A DNA stretch of 48,906 nucleotides from a virus (IMGVR_UViG_3300036399_001023); one strand, 5' to 3'; positions 5,731 through 41,626 are shown, counted from the stretch's first letter. Numbers and translations are program-made. Notes: a model not told the origin generated them from the sequence alone.

Positions 5731-6018
5731 TTACCGTATCTTGAGGGAAAACTTCGGAGTGTTTTTTGACGGTAGTCGCTTAGCGAGTGCGGGTGGTCGT
5801 GGTGCCACCGTTGCTTCTTTTACCGGGGGCTCCTCAGAGCTTGCTTCAGGATGGTTCTCCTGAGGGGTTTCCTGGTGAGGTTCCTGGTGAGGTTCCTGGT
5901 GAGACTCGCCTAGTTCCTCAATAGGGTGTTCAGGTGCAGGTGTCACAGTGGTTGTCTCCTCGGTGTGATCTAGGGGAACTGTTTCTGTGTCGGGTGCACT
6001 TTTTCTTCGTGTGGTCAT
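5731..6018 (-). CDS. Small low-complexity Pro/Glu/His-rich protein
   Basis: 95-aa ORF containing HQEP repeats. Confidence 0.55.
   Translation of the reverse strand: MTTRRKSAPDTETVPLDHTEETTTVTPAPEHPIEELGESHQEPHQEPHQETPQENHPEASSEEPPVKEATVAPRPPALAKRLPSKNTPKFSLKIR
5869..5903. repeat. 12-bp tandem repeat ttcctggtgagg, about 3 copies (HQEP peptide repeats)
   Basis: Seen directly in sequence. Confidence 0.85.
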
Positions 6019-6048
6019 TTCGGTGAGGTAGCTAAGAGTTTTTACCCG

Positions 6049-8106
6049 TCAAGTCTCAAAGTCGAAAACGCCTTCTTCTGACGCAGACAGATCGGCTGCA
6101 AATAGTGAATATCCTACTTTGTAGTGATTCGCGTCAACAGTTGACGAGGCGCCATCATCTTTGCAAGTTGGGGGGTACTTATAGATGCTCGCGTCCCACA
6201 CTGGTGCTGGAACGACTTCGAGTGTTTCTTCCTTGAGATCATTGACGAGGAATCCACGTAAGTTCTCAGAGGAAGGCGAGCGTAAGTACTCCCCATCCCA
6301 GTCACCGTAAGTCTCCCCAGGTAAGGAAGTGTTTGCTGTGCGACTGTGAAGAAGGTCGTAGCTCACAAGCTCGGCCTCATCAAAGTCGTCGTAGGGAGTG
6401 TCAAAACCAGGGGCAATATCCGAATTGTCGTAGTCGTCCGACGTCCCTTGGCCGTACAAAATGTCTGAGAATAGGTAAGGTTCCGAGTACAAAAACGGTA
6501 GCAACCCCTTTTCACCACCGTACAAAACTACTTGTTCGTACACAAGTGGCTCCGACTGCTCCGGGGGGCACGACATTTTCTCAGGGCTGAGCGAAGACCC
6601 CCAGTACCCGAAATTCTTACACACAAGGTTTACCTTTTGCCATGTACTATCGTTTCTCCCATACTCAGGGGGGAGGCGCACAAAGTACCGCTCCCAGTTC
6701 GGGTCACTAGGCCCGTGGTTTGTGTCGGCCCGAAGAGAGTTAGGGCGCCGAAGAAGCTCAAATTCGCTTGGAGAGTTAATTACCTGCAAAGCTTCACTTT
6801 TCCATGGCCTTAAGAGGGTTCCGCTATCTTCCACATTCGGAGACATGTAGTGAGTGCGGCCACTGAGTACGAGGTCGGATATTTTGCAGTTGAAGTTGGA
6901 TGCTAGGGAGTTAGATATGCTTATTACGGGCTCTCCCACTGAACCTGTGTAAACAAAGCGGAAAGTTTGAGATGGTGTGTCAATTTCATACAGAAACTGG
7001 AAGCTGTCGGAGACGTGAGAAACTCCTTCAAAAACTCTAACTCCGTCACAGTGAACTACAGCTGCACCAAAGTCCCCAAAGTCTGAAATTGGCCCCTCGC
7101 TCGCACTTTCTATGTAAGCCAAGACATCGGAAAAACTTACGTACTTGTCGACAGCGCTCGTATGGACAGAGACCCTTTCGTTAAACCCGTGGATACCTAG
7201 GGCATCAAAAACAAAGTTAAAGGGCAACCTTCCACCTTTGTTCGACCATACTCCGTAAAAGTTATCGATCTTTTCTCGAGTGGCCCAGTCAGAAGGGTTT
7301 GACCAAGGGGACACCCTCACTCGCAAGGTGGAACTTTCGTACGTTAGCTCTCCTTCGAGCCCGACCCCGTTAGAGGAAAGATCTGAGGGAATATCAAGGT
7401 ACCAACTCTCCCTCGAAAAGTCGTAGGTCGGGTCAATTGATACTGCTAAGGTGGTGAAAGTTACAGGGAGACTAAAAAAGTACCGTGCACCCGCTACAAA
7501 TGTGTTAAACTTGTAAGGTATTGTCCTCGCTGTGTTGTACTTCGGGAACAGGACAAGGTCGGACCCCTGGACTTCGCAGAGGAAGGAAGCGTCGGCGGTC
7601 GAACCTGGTTCGGGGCGAAAGAACGGACTGGGCAGAGCGCCAGGAGCTATCACCTTGAGCTGCTTATTTTCTGAAAGGTCAGTCAAGAACTGTCCCCCCA
7701 AACCTTCGAAAGTTAGAGCATAGTTGGCCCCAGCTTGAGACACTTCCTTCAGCAAGTACGAAAAGTCCCCTAAGTAAAAGGTCTGACCGACTTGTATTCG
7801 TGGGTCTGCCTTTATAATTACTGTGCCGTTCCAGTTGCGAACTTCGACAACTTCTGGGTGAATGTACCCGTCGTACACACCGAAGGATCCCGTCAAAAGG
7901 TTTCGCTTTTGGGTCACTGTTGAGGCAAGATTGGCCCAGTATTCAGGACCGCTCCAGCCCAAAAGCTGGGCGAGCCAGTCAAGTTGGTCGTTTACGCGGC
8001 TCTCGGTTAGAGCCACTGAGTTGAGTTGTTCGGCAGTTAGGTAAAGGTTTGTGGTACCGTAGTCCTCAAAGTCACTAATACTGAACGAGGGGTTTAAGTC
8101 GGTCAT
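6049..8106 (-). CDS. Baseplate/tail protein, possibly P2 gpI-like N-terminus
   Basis: LDWLAQLLGW..W..QKRNLL resembles gpI-type wedge proteins; lies downstream of baseplate J. Confidence 0.45.
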   Translation of the reverse strand: MTDLNPSFSISDFEDYGTTNLYLTAEQLNSVALTESRVNDQLDWLAQLLGWSGPEYWANLASTVTQKRNLLTGSFGVYDGYIHPEVVEVRNWNGTVIIKADPRIQVGQTFYLGDFSYLLKEVSQAGANYALTFEGLGGQFLTDLSENKQLKVIAPGALPSPFFRPEPGSTADASFLCEVQGSDLVLFPKYNTARTIPYKFNTFVAGARYFFSLPVTFTTLAVSIDPTYDFSRESWYLDIPSDLSSNGVGLEGELTYESSTLRVRVSPWSNPSDWATREKIDNFYGVWSNKGGRLPFNFVFDALGIHGFNERVSVHTSAVDKYVSFSDVLAYIESASEGPISDFGDFGAAVVHCDGVRVFEGVSHVSDSFQFLYEIDTPSQTFRFVYTGSVGEPVISISNSLASNFNCKISDLVLSGRTHYMSPNVEDSGTLLRPWKSEALQVINSPSEFELLRRPNSLRADTNHGPSDPNWERYFVRLPPEYGRNDSTWQKVNLVCKNFGYWGSSLSPEKMSCPPEQSEPLVYEQVVLYGGEKGLLPFLYSEPYLFSDILYGQGTSDDYDNSDIAPGFDTPYDDFDEAELVSYDLLHSRTANTSLPGETYGDWDGEYLRSPSSENLRGFLVNDLKEETLEVVPAPVWDASIYKYPPTCKDDGASSTVDANHYKVGYSLFAADLSASEEGVFDFET

Positions 8107-9379: not shown

Positions 9380-12201
9380 AGCGCTAACGTCCCCTCTCCG
9401 TAGTTCGGCGGGCTAAGTGCAAAAGTTGTTCCCGTGTACCAGGATAAGTCAGGAATTTGACCCAGGGTTGATGTGTTTTCCCACACGTATGTTAAGCTTG
9501 GTGACGAGCTAAAGTTCCTTCCGGTGTTCCGGGGGACAACAGTTATTTGGCAGGACCCAAGCTTAATCGAGGATGTTTCCACACCGTACTGGGACAGCAC
9601 CGGCTCTTCACAGCGATAGGAAACTACGTACCGTAGTAAGTTGCCCGCGTACTCTTCGTACCTCGAAGTGTTGTCTGCGGGCAGGCCGGACCAGTTTGTT
9701 ACTGTTTTCTGGGGTGTGAATGACTTCATGACTCTGTAATAGTTCCTACCGTCTTCACTCAAGATCGTGTCTTCCGTGGCGTTCAGGTATGCGGGGTTGA
9801 AGTAAGGAATGTAGTCGTCTACGGGGAGAAGGGATGGGCCGAATTCCTCGGACTTTACGAACACGCCGTTACCTAGGTATATGCTAAAGTCGAATAAGGG
9901 GGTGACTGCGGAGGTGGCGGTGTAGGATTGCACATCGGAACCTTCTCGAAAGAACGTGCGATCACCCTGAAAAAAGGTGAACATTCTGTCAAATTTTCGC
10001 AGGAGCGGGTTGTTCGTTAGTTCTGAAGCTAGCTGAGTTTGAAGCGCAGGGTTAGGAGAAAGGTTGTAAACCACACCCTCGCTAAGCAAATCTTGTATGT
10101 TGGTGCTACTGGGGGTGAAGTGCGAAGACGCAACGTAGTAAGTGGCTGGAGAAGATGAAGTTTCCTTATACAACAGGTACTGCCCTGGCTTGAACCGAGC
10201 TTTATACTTGTACAAAGGTAATCCACCGTTCCCGTTGAACACGAGGGTCTCAGATAGGATTCCCGAATCAACAAGATTACTAAAGTACTCCTTAACAGAT
10301 AGCTGGTTTGGACTATAGGTGAAACCAGCATTTACACGGGCGTACTTCACAATTGCGCCTTTTGTTAAGTCAACGTAGTTGTAGTAAGGGTCAACAACGG
10401 GATTGGGCCCTCCCCCTACTTGGGGAGTGGAAACCCACGTTCCTTGGGCATAGGACAACCCTTCAGTGAGCTGAGCAGGAACCACGGGAAGCCCGACTAA
10501 AAACTCTGCCTGAGCACCAGTAATATCGTTGGTGGACGGGTTGAGTGTAAAGTTTTTTGAAACTAGCCAGGCAAATCCTCCTGCACGGCTATTTAAGGGT
10601 ACTGCAGAGGGACTTTGAGGAACGAACTCCCCTGATGAGTAGTCATACTCCACAATTTCAGGGTCTAGTGTACCGCCAGAGGAATATGTGAAAGAGTTTC
10701 CAATTTCCCACGGCGAAAAGGTTTTCACTGCGGAGATCTTCCCGTTCAGAATGTATGAAGAAACGGCGGAAGAAGAACCGATGCTTAAGTTTTCTAGGAC
10801 GATGTGCAACCCTTGCTGGGCTAGATCCCCGGATCCATCATGATATACTATGTCACCAAGGGAGTAGGACCCGGATGTTAGCGGTCTTATCTGTTTGAGC
10901 GTAAGGTTGCCGTATATCGTCTGATCCTTCTTGTTTGAAGAGTAGGGTGTAAAGTTTGACTCTACCGGGTAGAAAGTCGGTGCAGGGTTATTGATGAATA
11001 TAAGGTTGCCCTCTTCCAGCAGGTTGTCAGACGCGGAAAAATCGTAGATGTTTGTGTATACCGACGCGTCCTTATTGAGAGAGTTCGGAGTGTTGTAAGC
11101 GGTCGATACTTTTACAGATGGATCTTTGAATCTTGTGTTCGTGTCGAAAGTTGCGTAGAACGCTGCGTCGATGTCACTCACAGTCGGAGTCACGTTCGCA
11201 GGAAAAACCTGCCCAGGAGTCAAAACTGAGAAGAGACGGTCTCGAAAATTGAGTGCAGACTCCTTAAAGTTCGACCCGAAAGTCCCGTTGGAGTCCACTT
11301 CAACGGTTAAGTTGTACTGAACTTGGCTTAGCGTAATGGGGAATAGGTGCCCTTGATTCTCAATCGGGACAGAGAAATTTACTGCGTTTTGGCCCAGCGA
11401 CAGTTGCTGAGTTGTAAGTTCTTGACCGTTTGGCCCAAGCACGAAAAAAGACACCTGCCCATTGGGGCGAAGGTAGTCTTGTGTGTAGTTGTATCCGTAG
11501 AAGCTGGAGCGGTTCGGCTGGACAGATGTCAAAGTGCCTATGCCATACAAGTCAGTGAAAAAATCTTGCCAGTCGGACCCACTGACGGGGTTTCTCCTGC
11601 GAATTAGAGTGAAGAATCTTTCCTGAACTTCCTGAAAAGTCTCGACGTCACTTCCGCCGACAGACGGTTGAGGGTTTGTTGCGGATAAGTTGAGTGTCCC
11701 TGTGTTTGAAGTTCCGGTGATTGAGTTTGCGGGAACGTTATAGGCGGATCCTACAAACTTTGAGTAAACTGGGACTCTACCGGTGAGGTCCCCAGGCGGA
11801 ATCACCAGGTCGGAGCTTGTAACAAACTCGTAGCTTTCTCCTGCTGTTAGCTGAGGGTTCGTAGAGAATAGGGACCCTGCGGGAATAACCGTGGAGCTCT
11901 TTGTTGGCGGGACCGAAATTACCAGCTCAGCTGTTGAGGTTGTCCCAAGCCTTCTCATGGCACCTAAGAAGGGTCCGATCCACTCGATAAGGATTTTGTC
12001 AGGGAGCTGGTTGGCCCAGAACAAGAATTCTCCCTGCGCAAAAGCTTGCCCCTCAAGGAGGACTGCTAGGGGGTTTCCCGCACTGAAGTCGTTAAGGGTT
12101 TTGTTGGACGCTTCGTAAACGGTTTGAGCCGCTGCTTGGACCAAGTCAGCTTCATTGCGCGGGTCAATGGAAACCGACGGTAGCGGTGAGTAACGTGGCA
12201 T
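9376..12201 (-). CDS. Baseplate J-like wedge protein with long C-terminal extension
   Basis: N-terminal DFSAGNPLAVLLE..GAMRRLGTTSTAEL..ATNPQPSVGGSDVET..RRRNPVSGSDW typical of baseplate J; 941 aa. Confidence 0.8.
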   Translation of the reverse strand: MPRYSPLPSVSIDPRNEADLVQAAAQTVYEASNKTLNDFSAGNPLAVLLEGQAFAQGEFLFWANQLPDKILIEWIGPFLGAMRRLGTTSTAELVISVPPTKSSTVIPAGSLFSTNPQLTAGESYEFVTSSDLVIPPGDLTGRVPVYSKFVGSAYNVPANSITGTSNTGTLNLSATNPQPSVGGSDVETFQEVQERFFTLIRRRNPVSGSDWQDFFTDLYGIGTLTSVQPNRSSFYGYNYTQDYLRPNGQVSFFVLGPNGQELTTQQLSLGQNAVNFSVPIENQGHLFPITLSQVQYNLTVEVDSNGTFGSNFKESALNFRDRLFSVLTPGQVFPANVTPTVSDIDAAFYATFDTNTRFKDPSVKVSTAYNTPNSLNKDASVYTNIYDFSASDNLLEEGNLIFINNPAPTFYPVESNFTPYSSNKKDQTIYGNLTLKQIRPLTSGSYSLGDIVYHDGSGDLAQQGLHIVLENLSIGSSSAVSSYILNGKISAVKTFSPWEIGNSFTYSSGGTLDPEIVEYDYSSGEFVPQSPSAVPLNSRAGGFAWLVSKNFTLNPSTNDITGAQAEFLVGLPVVPAQLTEGLSYAQGTWVSTPQVGGGPNPVVDPYYNYVDLTKGAIVKYARVNAGFTYSPNQLSVKEYFSNLVDSGILSETLVFNGNGGLPLYKYKARFKPGQYLLYKETSSSPATYYVASSHFTPSSTNIQDLLSEGVVYNLSPNPALQTQLASELTNNPLLRKFDRMFTFFQGDRTFFREGSDVQSYTATSAVTPLFDFSIYLGNGVFVKSEEFGPSLLPVDDYIPYFNPAYLNATEDTILSEDGRNYYRVMKSFTPQKTVTNWSGLPADNTSRYEEYAGNLLRYVVSYRCEEPVLSQYGVETSSIKLGSCQITVVPRNTGRNFSSSPSLTYVWENTSTLGQIPDLSWYTGTTFALSPPNYGEGTLAL

Positions 12202-39273: not shown

Positions 39274-39302
39274 ACTATAGCGTTTTTGTCGCTATAAGGC
39301 AA
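39274..39302 (-). promoter_or_regulatory. Sigma70-like early promoter TTGCCT-17-TATAGT
   Basis: Hexamers seen; ATG of the next gene begins 7 nt after the -10 box. Confidence 0.7.
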
Positions 39303-39572
39303 GGGCCTAAACCGCCCCGCTCAGGGCGGTTATCCGCTTTTTCTAGCTGTAGGCCTGCCGCTACCATTCGCAGTGAGTGCTCGGCGTCAGCTACGGCTTG
39401 TTCATCAGGCGACGGCAGCTTTCGTTCCAGCAACTCGTCACCCCACTGCCATTTGGCCGCTTGTTCTGGGGGGGGGCGGTTTCTCTTTGGTTAGTCATTC
39501 TAACATGTGAACAATAAGGGTTGTTAAGTGACCAAGGAAGTGCCTGTACGACACTTCTTTTGCACTTTATTT

Positions 39573-40679
39573 CTATAGAACGTTTAGGTCAGGATACAGG
39601 CTCAAAAGTTCATCCTTTGACAGAACATCAAACTCGTCTTCGGGCTGCCAAATAACTTCCAGTGCCACCAGATCCTCGGGAGAGACAGATCCAAGTTTCA
39701 CAAGATTGGCGTTCAAGCTCTCATGCGAGTCAGACAGTTTGAGATCCAGCTTTTGGTCCGACGCCACAAGAACGCTCACAAGGATATACTCGTTCTCCCT
39801 TACGCCCCTTTGGGGTTTGACCTTACGCTCTGAGATGCTCCCGCCCACATTCGTGAGAACTTCCTCTGATGCCTTAGAGCGTTCTTCCATGGAAAGTTGG
39901 TCGAATCGGCTTTCTGCGTCGTCAGACGCCACCTGCTCAGTACTACTCCACGCGTAAACAACTTTGTCTGGGTGGCGAAGAAGGGCGAGGGAAGTTTCTT
40001 GCAGGATCTTCGAGAGACCCTCAGCACTGTCCGTGTCCCCTCGCCGAGCGAGTCGTATTAGGTCTGTTTGTAGGTCCTTTGCAGAGGCGAGCAAGGCCAC
40101 TCGCTGCCTCACCACGGTCGTCTTTCTAAGCTTGTCCCGCTGAGTACTCACCCATGGGCTCACAAAGTCGTCCCAACCCCCCGCCAGCAGAAAGATGGCC
40201 AAGCCTACTACGCCTAACACGGCAAGGATCCCAAAAAAGAATGCGGGACTTACAGGTATTTGAGGCACTGGTGCCACTTGCGACGAATAAAGTGGAGGAG
40301 CAACCGGATAGACGTTCGGTGTCATGTCCGGCATCACAATGATGTTCGTTCTGTTGCTCCTAGGGTTGCTGTAGGGTAGTGTTGTCCGGTACGGTATCGA
40401 AGGGCTACCACCGTAGTAGCTTGGACTTCTACTCAGCCCCGGTGCAGGGGTGCTTCTTAGCACCGGTGAGGGAGATGTCCTATAGCTTGGAGAGCTGGAG
40501 CGACTACTCCCGAAACTTGGGGACCGAGATGGTCGGCTATAGCTAGACGAACTGCGAAAGCTCCGTCCGCTTATTCGTCCGGCTGACGCTGCGAGTGCTG
40601 GTGTTGCCGAGAGCAGGGTTGCTAAGGCGAAAGTCAAAGCCAAGACAGTTGCTGCGGTTGCTGCGGTTTTTGTTTTCAT
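39573..40679 (-). CDS. DUF1517-family membrane protein (FLAP1/FlpA-like)
   Basis: Signal peptide, AASAGRISGRSF Ser/Gly-rich region, TM helix, ETSLALLRHP, EYILVSVLVA, LEVIWQP..ELLSLYPDL C-terminus. Confidence 0.85.
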   Translation of the reverse strand: MKTKTAATAATVLALTFALATLLSATPALAASAGRISGRSFRSSSSYSRPSRSPSFGSSRSSSPSYRTSPSPVLRSTPAPGLSRSPSYYGGSPSIPYRTTLPYSNPRSNRTNIIVMPDMTPNVYPVAPPLYSSQVAPVPQIPVSPAFFFGILAVLGVVGLAIFLLAGGWDDFVSPWVSTQRDKLRKTTVVRQRVALLASAKDLQTDLIRLARRGDTDSAEGLSKILQETSLALLRHPDKVVYAWSSTEQVASDDAESRFDQLSMEERSKASEEVLTNVGGSISERKVKPQRGVRENEYILVSVLVASDQKLDLKLSDSHESLNANLVKLGSVSPEDLVALEVIWQPEDEFDVLSKDELLSLYPDLNVL

Positions 40680-40756: not shown

Positions 40757-41533
40757 TCATACAGCCTCCCACTCGTTCGCCTTGAATTTCGGTCGCCACC
40801 AGTTTCGAACTTTACCGGCTTTGTCGATAGACAAGATAATGTAGTCGCCGAACCCCGCGCCACCTTTGCACAAATACTCGTCAGGAACGTAATCCCCACG
40901 GTACTTAAATAAGCGGTGCTCCGAGTCTCTGAGCCAGTACTCACCTTGGTCGCACACTTTGTAGTAAATTTCGGCGGTGACTCCGTAGGGCCACTCCATC
41001 ACCTGACCGTCTTTCAGGCGAATTGTTGGAGTCCAACATTTACCGGTCCTTAAGGGGATGAGTGTCCCCTCTTTATCAATCGTCTCATTGACTGTCGCGT
41101 CTTCCCAGTACCGCACTTCTGCGGATAGCTCAAGATACTCTAGTTTTGGAGTATTAGTGCCGGAGAGGCTAACCGTGCTCTTAGAACTCGACATGTCCGG
41201 GAACCAAGTGTCTTTTCGGCTAGAGTATACGGCGGTGTCGTCTTCGGTGAAAGACCTCTTTCGGCCAAACTTGTAGACCTCCACTTGGTCCTTCGTAAAG
41301 ACATAGCAAAAGTCGGTAGATGCGCTGGTTTTCCATTTCCAGGGCCAACCCTCTTCAGGAGAGTGAAAGTCTTCCCGTTTGGCTATGCGCCTGATTTTGG
41401 ACCGGAACTCGTGCGCGGAGGTGACGAACGTGATTTCCGGACAAATAGTTTCAAGAACACCACCGTCGGAGGAAATAGACCCGAGCCACTCAATGGACTT
41501 CGAAAGTCGAACGTAAAAGTCTGCCGGTTGCAT
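40757..41533 (-). CDS. Hypothetical protein, apparently two domains
   Basis: 258 aa downstream of a promoter. Confidence 0.6.
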   Translation of the reverse strand: MQPADFYVRLSKSIEWLGSISSDGGVLETICPEITFVTSAHEFRSKIRRIAKREDFHSPEEGWPWKWKTSASTDFCYVFTKDQVEVYKFGRKRSFTEDDTAVYSSRKDTWFPDMSSSKSTVSLSGTNTPKLEYLELSAEVRYWEDATVNETIDKEGTLIPLRTGKCWTPTIRLKDGQVMEWPYGVTAEIYYKVCDQGEYWLRDSEHRLFKYRGDYVPDEYLCKGGAGFGDYIILSIDKAGKVRNWWRPKFKANEWEAV

Positions 41534-41569: not shown

Positions 41570-41598
41570 ACTATACCGCTTTCCTCTCGGAAAGGCAA
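41570..41598 (-). promoter_or_regulatory. Sigma70-like early promoter TTGCCT-17-TATAGT
   Basis: Same hexamers and spacing as the 39.3-kb promoter. Confidence 0.72.
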
Positions 41599-41626
41599 GG
41601 CGGGGAAACCGCCCCAGAGCAGCCGG

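Follow-up and report, generated by a model that had tools for sequence, protein, structure and literature searches.

The DUF1517 gene and its protein

The DNA analyzed here, referred to as the window, is a 48,906-nt stretch of viral DNA (IMGVR_UViG_3300036399_001023). Its minus strand carries an open reading frame that starts with ATG, ends with TAG, and encodes a protein of 368 aa (Table 1). In the Pfam search, this protein matched PF07466 (DUF1517) with 187.8 bits (E = 2.6e-55; cut-off 23.3), and its residues 187–367 covered positions 2–183 of the 184 profile positions, i.e., nearly the full domain. This strong, full-length match bears out the DUF1517 membership that had been proposed in an initial annotation of the sequence. 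Searches of the PHROGs and NCBIfam libraries with the same protein returned no family.

Table 1. Features of the DUF1517 locus in the window, in order of decreasing coordinate.
Feature	Position	Strand	Basis
Stem-loop and promoter-like cassette TTGCCT-17-TATAGT, upstream	41570..41616	-	consensus scan
258-aa ORF directly upstream of the DUF1517 gene	40757..41533	-	
DUF1517/FLAP1-family membrane protein gene, complete (P0001)	39573..40679	-	ORF list, translation, Pfam, dN/dS 0.18 against the copy of G001
Signal peptide, residues 1–30 (MKTK..., hydrophobic core, A-L-A site)	40590..40679	-	hydropathy peak at residues 5–32
Conserved motif ASAGRISGRSFRS, residues 31–43, predicted mature N-terminus	40551..40589	-	host alignment
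Phage-type low-complexity linker, residues 44–145, Ser/Pro/Arg/Tyr-rich	40245..40550	-	composition compared with hosts
Single TM helix, residues 146–169 (AFFFGILAVLGVVGLAIFLLAGGW)	40173..40244	-	hydropathy and AlphaFold2 model
DUF1517 C-terminal alpha/beta domain, residues 187–367	39579..40121	-	Pfam, AlphaFold2, conservation
Second stem-loop and TTGCCT-17-TATAGT cassette, downstream of the DUF1517 gene	39274..39320	-	consensus scan, copy alignment

The hydrophobic N-terminal stretch (residues 5–32) includes A28-L29-A30, a site of the signal-peptidase type, and the signal peptide would be cleaved after A30. Residues P27, A30, and A31 were invariant in the alignment of phage and host copies. 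The motif ASAGRISGRSFRS and its host counterpart AASGGRIGGGSFRS aligned in every column, with A31, G34, R35, I36, F41, R42, and S43 invariant in both groups. Past the linker, the hydropathy profile showed one hydrophobic helix only (A146–W169), and the C-terminal domain (C-domain) ends with ...ELLSLYPDLNVL. The protein is thus built of a signal peptide or anchor, a motif of the SGGRIGGxSF type, a linker, and a TM helix placed directly before the domain. The signal peptide, the TM helix, and the end of the C-domain had been described correctly in the initial annotation, but the segment that it called Ser/Gly/Arg-rich is actually Ser/Pro/Arg/Tyr-rich; the Gly-rich composition is that of the host form. 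Two gene calls of the phage clade, P0036 (221 aa, L150) and P0003 (253 aa), were much shorter and apparently lacked the signal peptide and the linker.

The 258-aa ORF upstream of the DUF1517 gene, which apparently belongs to the same transcription unit, had no match in Pfam or PHROGs. Other small ORFs occupy its place in two related contigs (L002 and L003). The pattern TTGCCT-17-TATAGT occurs twice in the window, compared to 0.17 occurrences expected by chance, and both copies are preceded by a stem-loop (GGGGCGGTTT...). The two cassettes bracket the gene and look like combined terminators and promoters. The upstream cassette is likely to start the unit with the 258-aa ORF and the DUF1517 gene, and the downstream cassette may start the next one.

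The carrier phage and its relatives

The window encodes a portal protein, a prohead protease, a 1241-aa sheath protein, and a baseplate wedge protein, together with a Pol-gamma-type polymerase, a topoisomerase II, an AAA_28 kinase-like protein, and a metallophosphoesterase. It derives from a contractile-tailed cyanophage from lake water. The near-identical relative G001 (IMG/VR; 277,244 bp; CheckV 98%) carries a DUF1517 gene 93% identical to that of the window. In this genome type, the gene co-occurs with a full-length psbA/psbD-type gene (L006, G001:C1:272210-273082; 284 bits, 359-aa open frame), which is located close to an end of the linear record. CemA/PxcA, PspA/VIPP1, ferredoxin (Fer2), and hli were sought in G001 as co-encoded partners and were not found. 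The AOX/PTOX search of G001 carries no weight, as its control matched nowhere.

Among cultured phages, Synechococcus phage S-CBWM1 is the closest, with 61% identity in the portal protein and 57% in the Pol-gamma-type polymerase, and all 11 polymerase matches among deposited phages were cyanophages. A cyanobacterial host, as claimed in the initial annotation, is supported by these matches, by the psbA-type gene of G001, and by the cellular DUF1517 proteins, of which the best 80 matches were all from picocyanobacteria. Two metagenomes (3300033996 and 3300042374) contained viral contigs together with Cyanobium or Prochlorococcaceae metagenome-assembled genomes (MAGs), which is consistent with these bacteria as hosts. 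S-CBWM1 (Aokuangvirus, 139 kb) has its phosphatase, topoisomerase II, and polymerase genes in the same order as the window lineage, but its genome is half the size of the ~280-kb relatives and lacks the DUF1517 gene. Its gp51 was considered as a diverged copy and was rejected, as the two proteins proved unrelated on comparison.

Distribution among viruses

The DUF1517 gene was found in related phage neighborhoods on at least 10 independent contigs (from JGI, ENA, NCBI, and Logan) that were inspected for gene order, and in 6 of them it occupied the same slot. On 6 inspected contigs, the genes ran in the order DUF1517, metallophosphoesterase, AAA_28, topoisomerase, polymerase, and the others had variants of this arrangement. 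When eight top-tier relatives from the protein collection were checked for context, seven lay in phage-type neighborhoods; the contig of the eighth (P0122, 2.7 kb) was too short to judge. Several of the gene-bearing phage contigs were 280–284 kb long. The top tier consisted of full-length relatives with 39–94% identity. Below it, proteins of Cyanobium and Synechococcus formed a plateau; these aligned over the C-terminal half only, with 43–52% identity.

In IMG/VR, 16 loci carried the gene, all within one phage clade. Neither tblastn (E ≤ 1e-3) nor megablast detected a DUF1517 homologue among 50,697 deposited phages. In the searchable literature, cyanophage and FLAP1 were never combined, and the DUF1517 papers had no phage in title or abstract. 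As far as searched, the gene is confined to one freshwater phage lineage. The initial annotation had placed it outside the standard cyanophage AMGs; the deposited phages, the PHROGs, and the searchable literature agree with this, and the gene is a new candidate for the viral management of host photosynthesis.

More distant carriers of the gene were found in Logan and ENA (L149, L150, L151, and L154). These encode RNase T, RNA ligases, a histone-deacetylase-family protein, a radical SAM protein, an EF-Ts-like gene, and a DNA polymerase III beta clamp, and they represent a diverse, largely undescribed group of phages.

Selection on the phage gene

Between the window and G001, the whole gene had a dN/dS of 0.18, with a value of 0.10 in the TM helix plus C-domain and of 0.36 in the signal peptide plus linker. 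Between two of the ~280-kb relatives, it was 0.09. These values show that the phage DUF1517 gene is under purifying selection. The phages keep the gene down to a C-domain identity of ~49%. When 347 cellular copies were compared to 56 copies of the phage clade, 24 of the 32 C-domain columns with at least 90% conservation in the cellular copies were equally conserved in the phage clade. In the remaining eight columns, conservation was partial or the changes were conservative, as with Q193R and T302N/S.

One copy with 91–93% identity has a broken frame (L190, the same as L015; IMGVR_UViG_3300042464_000635, gene at ~6001-7057). A one-base insertion in a C-run (CACCC to CACCCCC at nucleotide ~707 of the coding sequence) splits the gene into two stop-to-stop frames (252 and 161 residues); the first frame opens upstream of the start codon. 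Either the homopolymer was misread in sequencing, or this copy is a true pseudogene.

The frameshifted relative (91% identical), together with the absence of the gene from the cultured S-CBWM1, would fit the view that the gene is host contamination, part of a chimeric assembly, or a decaying passenger. The low dN/dS (0.09–0.18), the shared slot on 6 of at least 10 inspected phage contigs, and the 16 IMG/VR loci speak against this explanation, and the frameshift itself, located in a homopolymer, could stem from an error in sequencing. In addition, the identity to any cellular copy did not exceed 52%, so the phage gene is not recent host DNA. Contamination and chimerism were rejected on the basis of synteny and selection, and we consider an artifact or a decaying passenger gene very improbable.

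Origin of the phage gene

The PF07466 family comprises 1072 clusters, most of them cellular. In a sample of Cyanobacteriota, the family was present in 46 of 121 genomes, and large cyanobacteria had two to four paralogues that fell into three score classes. In the family to which Cyanobium usitatum belongs, 105 of 121 genomes had a DUF1517 gene, as a single match in 104 of them, and these included small, low-GC genomes. The nearest cellular relatives of the phage protein were 45–52% identical to it over the C-domain. Copies from Cyanobium usitatum (L037), Synechococcus lacustris (L070), and Cyanobium sp. Cruz CV13-4-11 (P0065) are single-copy genes whose products have the same architecture as the phage protein. 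The likeness to these freshwater picocyanobacterial copies is restricted to the N-terminal motif and the part from the TM helix onward, whereas the linkers differ in composition and length.

Trees were inferred by FastTree (407 rows), by IQ-TREE under a site-heterogeneous model (79 and 99 rows), and under LG+F+G4 with 1000 ultrafast bootstraps (99 rows). The phage rows were monophyletic in all three analyses, with support values of 88 (FastTree), 99 (SH-aLRT), and 92 (UFBoot), and their stem branch was long (0.54–0.58). The phage clade joined a group of freshwater, estuarine, and marine picocyanobacteria. In the 99-row trees, this grouping of the phages with the picocyanobacterial family had an SH-aLRT of 86 (site-heterogeneous) and a UFBoot of 100 (LG+F+G4); in the 79-row site-heterogeneous tree, the phages grouped with freshwater picocyanobacteria with an SH-aLRT of 96. 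Under the site-heterogeneous model, phages and picocyanobacteria were nested in the main orthologue class, with the second and the short paralogue classes outside. In the LG+F+G4 tree, the second-class paralogues branched near the phages and picocyanobacteria, so their exclusion is model-dependent.

The exact attachment point of the phage clade also varied. In the LG+F+G4 tree, the host family was monophyletic with a UFBoot of 100 and the phages were its sister. In the AU test under the site-heterogeneous model, a clade of phages and freshwater Cyanobium-type sequences was not rejected (p = 0.75), and the tree constrained to contain this clade even exceeded the quick free tree in likelihood. 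On the ground of this test, a sister relationship between the phage clade and the whole host family was dropped as a firm conclusion. The safe statement from the sequences is that the gene was acquired once, long ago, from a picocyanobacterium-like donor and then descended vertically in the phage lineage. The donor probably belonged to the freshwater picocyanobacteria, which are also the probable hosts. In the phylogeny against host copies, which the initial annotation had suggested, the closest relatives of the phage clade were photosynthetic bacteria, not the non-photosynthetic ones that would have spoken against its reading.

In the host genomes, the DUF1517 gene lies among ribF, thiE, and ispF. 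These are unrelated housekeeping genes, so the host neighborhood gives no hint of function. Picocyanobacterial-type DUF1517 genes were also found in four MAGs titled Klebsiella, Rhizobium, Bradyrhizobium, and Pseudanabaena (L051, L072, L074, and L046). These are probably mislabelled or contaminated bins; L051 fell within the Cyanobium/Synechococcus clade in the trees.

Linker replacement and the C-domain

The linkers of phage and host proteins differ systematically. Phage linkers had a median length of 97 aa and consisted of 25% Ser, 20% Pro, and 8% Arg, compared to a median of 42 aa with 43% Gly and 12% Phe in the hosts. A phage-clade motif, TNIIVMPDMTPNV, lies inside the linker of the window protein. 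In L002, the linker region (10109-10251) is a 24-nt tandem repeat of 5.4 copies with a 91% match, which encodes SSPSYSRS; in L003 (10145-10240), 3.9 decayed copies of the same repeat were found. No such repeat was detectable at the DNA level in the window copy. The tandem repeats of L002 and L003 indicate that the linker length varies through gain and loss of repeats. The replaced Ser/Pro/Arg/Tyr linker suggests that phage and host proteins are regulated differently or have different partners on the trans side of the membrane. Taken together with the eight relaxed or changed C-domain columns, it indicates that the activity of the phage protein may differ from that of the host protein.

Structural models were built by AlphaFold2 from a 144-row alignment. 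The TM helix plus C-domain was modelled with a pLDDT of 92.1 and a pTM of 0.81, and the C-domain alone with a pLDDT of 90.2 and a pTM of 0.86. A continuous helix (residues 145–183, block pLDDT 83–94) leads into an alpha/beta domain that is compact and contains long strands. Foldseek gave nothing convincing, with best E-values of 0.16 for the C-domain only and 0.7 for the TM helix plus C-domain. In the fold searches, the model of the TM helix plus C-domain matched single long helices only. The exhaustive VIA search with the C-domain only was likewise unconvincing (best Z 3.6), and the sequence-profile search against the PDB gave nothing below E = 0.1. The C-domain fold is therefore without a recognizable solved relative, and the structure provides no mechanistic support.

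These differences could mean that the phage protein is a variant of altered function or an antagonist, in which the FlpA-like cytoplasmic domain is kept and the new linker changes its regulation or partners. Such a variant would reprogramme the host by dissipating or locking the ΔpH or by out-competing host FlpA, favoring ATP for phage replication. The clade-wide exchange of a 42-aa Gly/Phe-rich linker for a Ser/Pro/Arg/Tyr-rich one of ~97 aa, the phage-specific linker motif and the 24-nt repeats of some relatives, the substitutions Q193R, G195A, R201K, and T302N/S at otherwise conserved C-domain positions, and the long phage stem branch are all in line with this possibility. However, most of the conserved residues and the N-terminal motif are kept, and the low dN/dS fits an unchanged function equally well. 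Linkers of low complexity often drift while the function stays the same, and dN/dS reached 0.36 in the N-terminal part. We consider a variant of this kind unlikely.

Proposed function

The members of the PF07466 family with known phenotypes are FLAP1 of Arabidopsis (At1g54520) and FlpA of Synechocystis (reviewed in PMC9174948 from Sato 2017, Trinh 2019, and Inago 2020). FLAP1 resides in the thylakoid and the envelope membrane and combines DUF1517 with a single TM helix; upon its loss, lumen acidification and NPQ stay high, and the plants bleach under fluctuating light (PMC9174948). The phenotypes of flap1 and ΔflpA mutants concern H+ handling under fluctuating light in Arabidopsis and Synechocystis, respectively, and the role in proton homeostasis and NPQ cited in the initial annotation matches this review (PMC9174948). 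FLAP1 and FlpA have no established partner, and their molecular activity is undefined (PMC9174948). The phage protein shares with them a single TM helix followed by the C-domain and the conserved core residues, and with the cyanobacterial copies also the signal peptide and the SGGRIGGxSF motif. It differs from FLAP1 and FlpA in being encoded by a virus, in its Ser/Pro/Arg/Tyr-rich linker in place of a Gly-rich one, and in its clade-specific substitutions. The likeness, seen in the sequence, holds at the level of the family.

We propose, with a probability of roughly 0.55, that the gene is a host-derived auxiliary gene of the DUF1517/FLAP1/FlpA family that supplies FlpA activity during infection. 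The gene is encoded in a bona fide phage genome, is homologous to a host gene, and is kept by selection; it is a candidate AMG. An ancestor of freshwater Synechococcus/Cyanobium myoviruses, including the ~280-kb jumbo phages, took the gene from a picocyanobacterium-like donor, and the gene has since passed down vertically beside the replication genes for the metallophosphoesterase, the AAA_28 kinase-like protein, topoisomerase II, and the Pol-gamma-type polymerase. During infection, the protein would be made from an early or middle transcription unit. The Sec-type signal peptide would direct it to the plasma and/or thylakoid membrane of the host, where the single TM helix would anchor it with the linker on the periplasmic or lumenal side and the DUF1517 domain on the cytoplasmic side. 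By analogy with the genetics of FLAP1 and FlpA, the phage protein could then supply FlpA activity, that is, control of light-induced H+ fluxes. Proton motive force (pmf) and pH might thereby be kept fit for photophosphorylation as host protein synthesis falls, in parallel to the phage psbA. The absence from G001 of PxcA/CemA, the genetic partners of FLAP1, counts against this reading, as do the replaced linker with the eight changed C-domain columns and the frameshifted copy of L190.

Besides photosynthetic bacteria, PF07466 matches above the cut-off were obtained in the control genomes of Thermus thermophilus and Deinococcus radiodurans. DUF1517, which the initial annotation had called typical of cyanobacteria and chloroplasts, therefore does not occur in phototrophs exclusively. 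The matches also contrast with the literature, in which FLAP1 homologues are specific to oxygenic phototrophs. Hence, the core role of the family may not be specific to photosynthesis, and the phage protein could have a general role in the membrane or envelope, such as VIPP1/PspA-type maintenance, a link between pmf and the time of lysis, or the exclusion of superinfecting phages by the periplasmic linker. FLAP1 was among the proteins that co-purified with VIPP1-YFP in Arabidopsis (bioRxiv 10.1101/2023.10.10.561251). The position of the phage gene among replication and early genes and not adjoining psbA, and the finding that psbA alone was present in G001 among the photosynthesis and proton-handling families tested, point in the same direction. 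On the other hand, the phage clade has its origin in the orthologue class of cyanobacteria, for which photosynthetic H+ handling accounts for the sole tested phenotypes, and the link to VIPP1 comes from one co-immunoprecipitation list. Furthermore, no PspA/VIPP1 gene was found in G001, and the protein showed no resemblance to holins or known exclusion proteins in PHROGs and NCBIfam. A general membrane role is quite unlikely in our judgment.

The replaced linker, the clade substitutions, the lack of a co-encoded CemA or PspA in G001, and the Thermus and Deinococcus matches nevertheless allow for a membrane role that is altered or broader in kind. One form that such a role could take, which we regard as distinctly unlikely, is a retargeted FlpA, in which the new repeat linker and the altered C-domain steer the partitioning of pmf, possibly via VIPP1-linked membrane maintenance. 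If true, it would add a new layer to the viral control of photosynthesis, acting via proton and membrane homeostasis, and would offer a natural variant for working out the molecular role of FLAP1 and FlpA.

Relation to other cyanophage auxiliary genes

The cyanophage genes psbA, hli, and PTOX are the textbook case of viral reprogramming of global primary producers. To our knowledge, the known cyanophage photosynthesis genes all act on reaction centers, pigments, or electron carriers. Like the AMGs psbA, psbD, hli, PTOX, petE, and petF, the DUF1517 gene is host-derived, linked to the photosynthetic membrane, and selected in cyanophages; unlike them, it belongs to another protein family and would act on proton and pH homeostasis. 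DUF1517/FLAP1-FlpA is a new gene family among the cyanophage auxiliary genes. A conserved and selected viral FLAP1/FlpA would add the proton and pH balance of photosynthetic membranes to the functions that cyanophages target, in the setting of freshwater picocyanobacteria, whose phages are poorly known. Within the viral clade, the N-terminal motif, the TM helix, and the core of the C-domain are invariant, whereas the linker is freely replaced; this contrast points to the parts of the protein that matter, and the phage gene is small enough for complementation tests.
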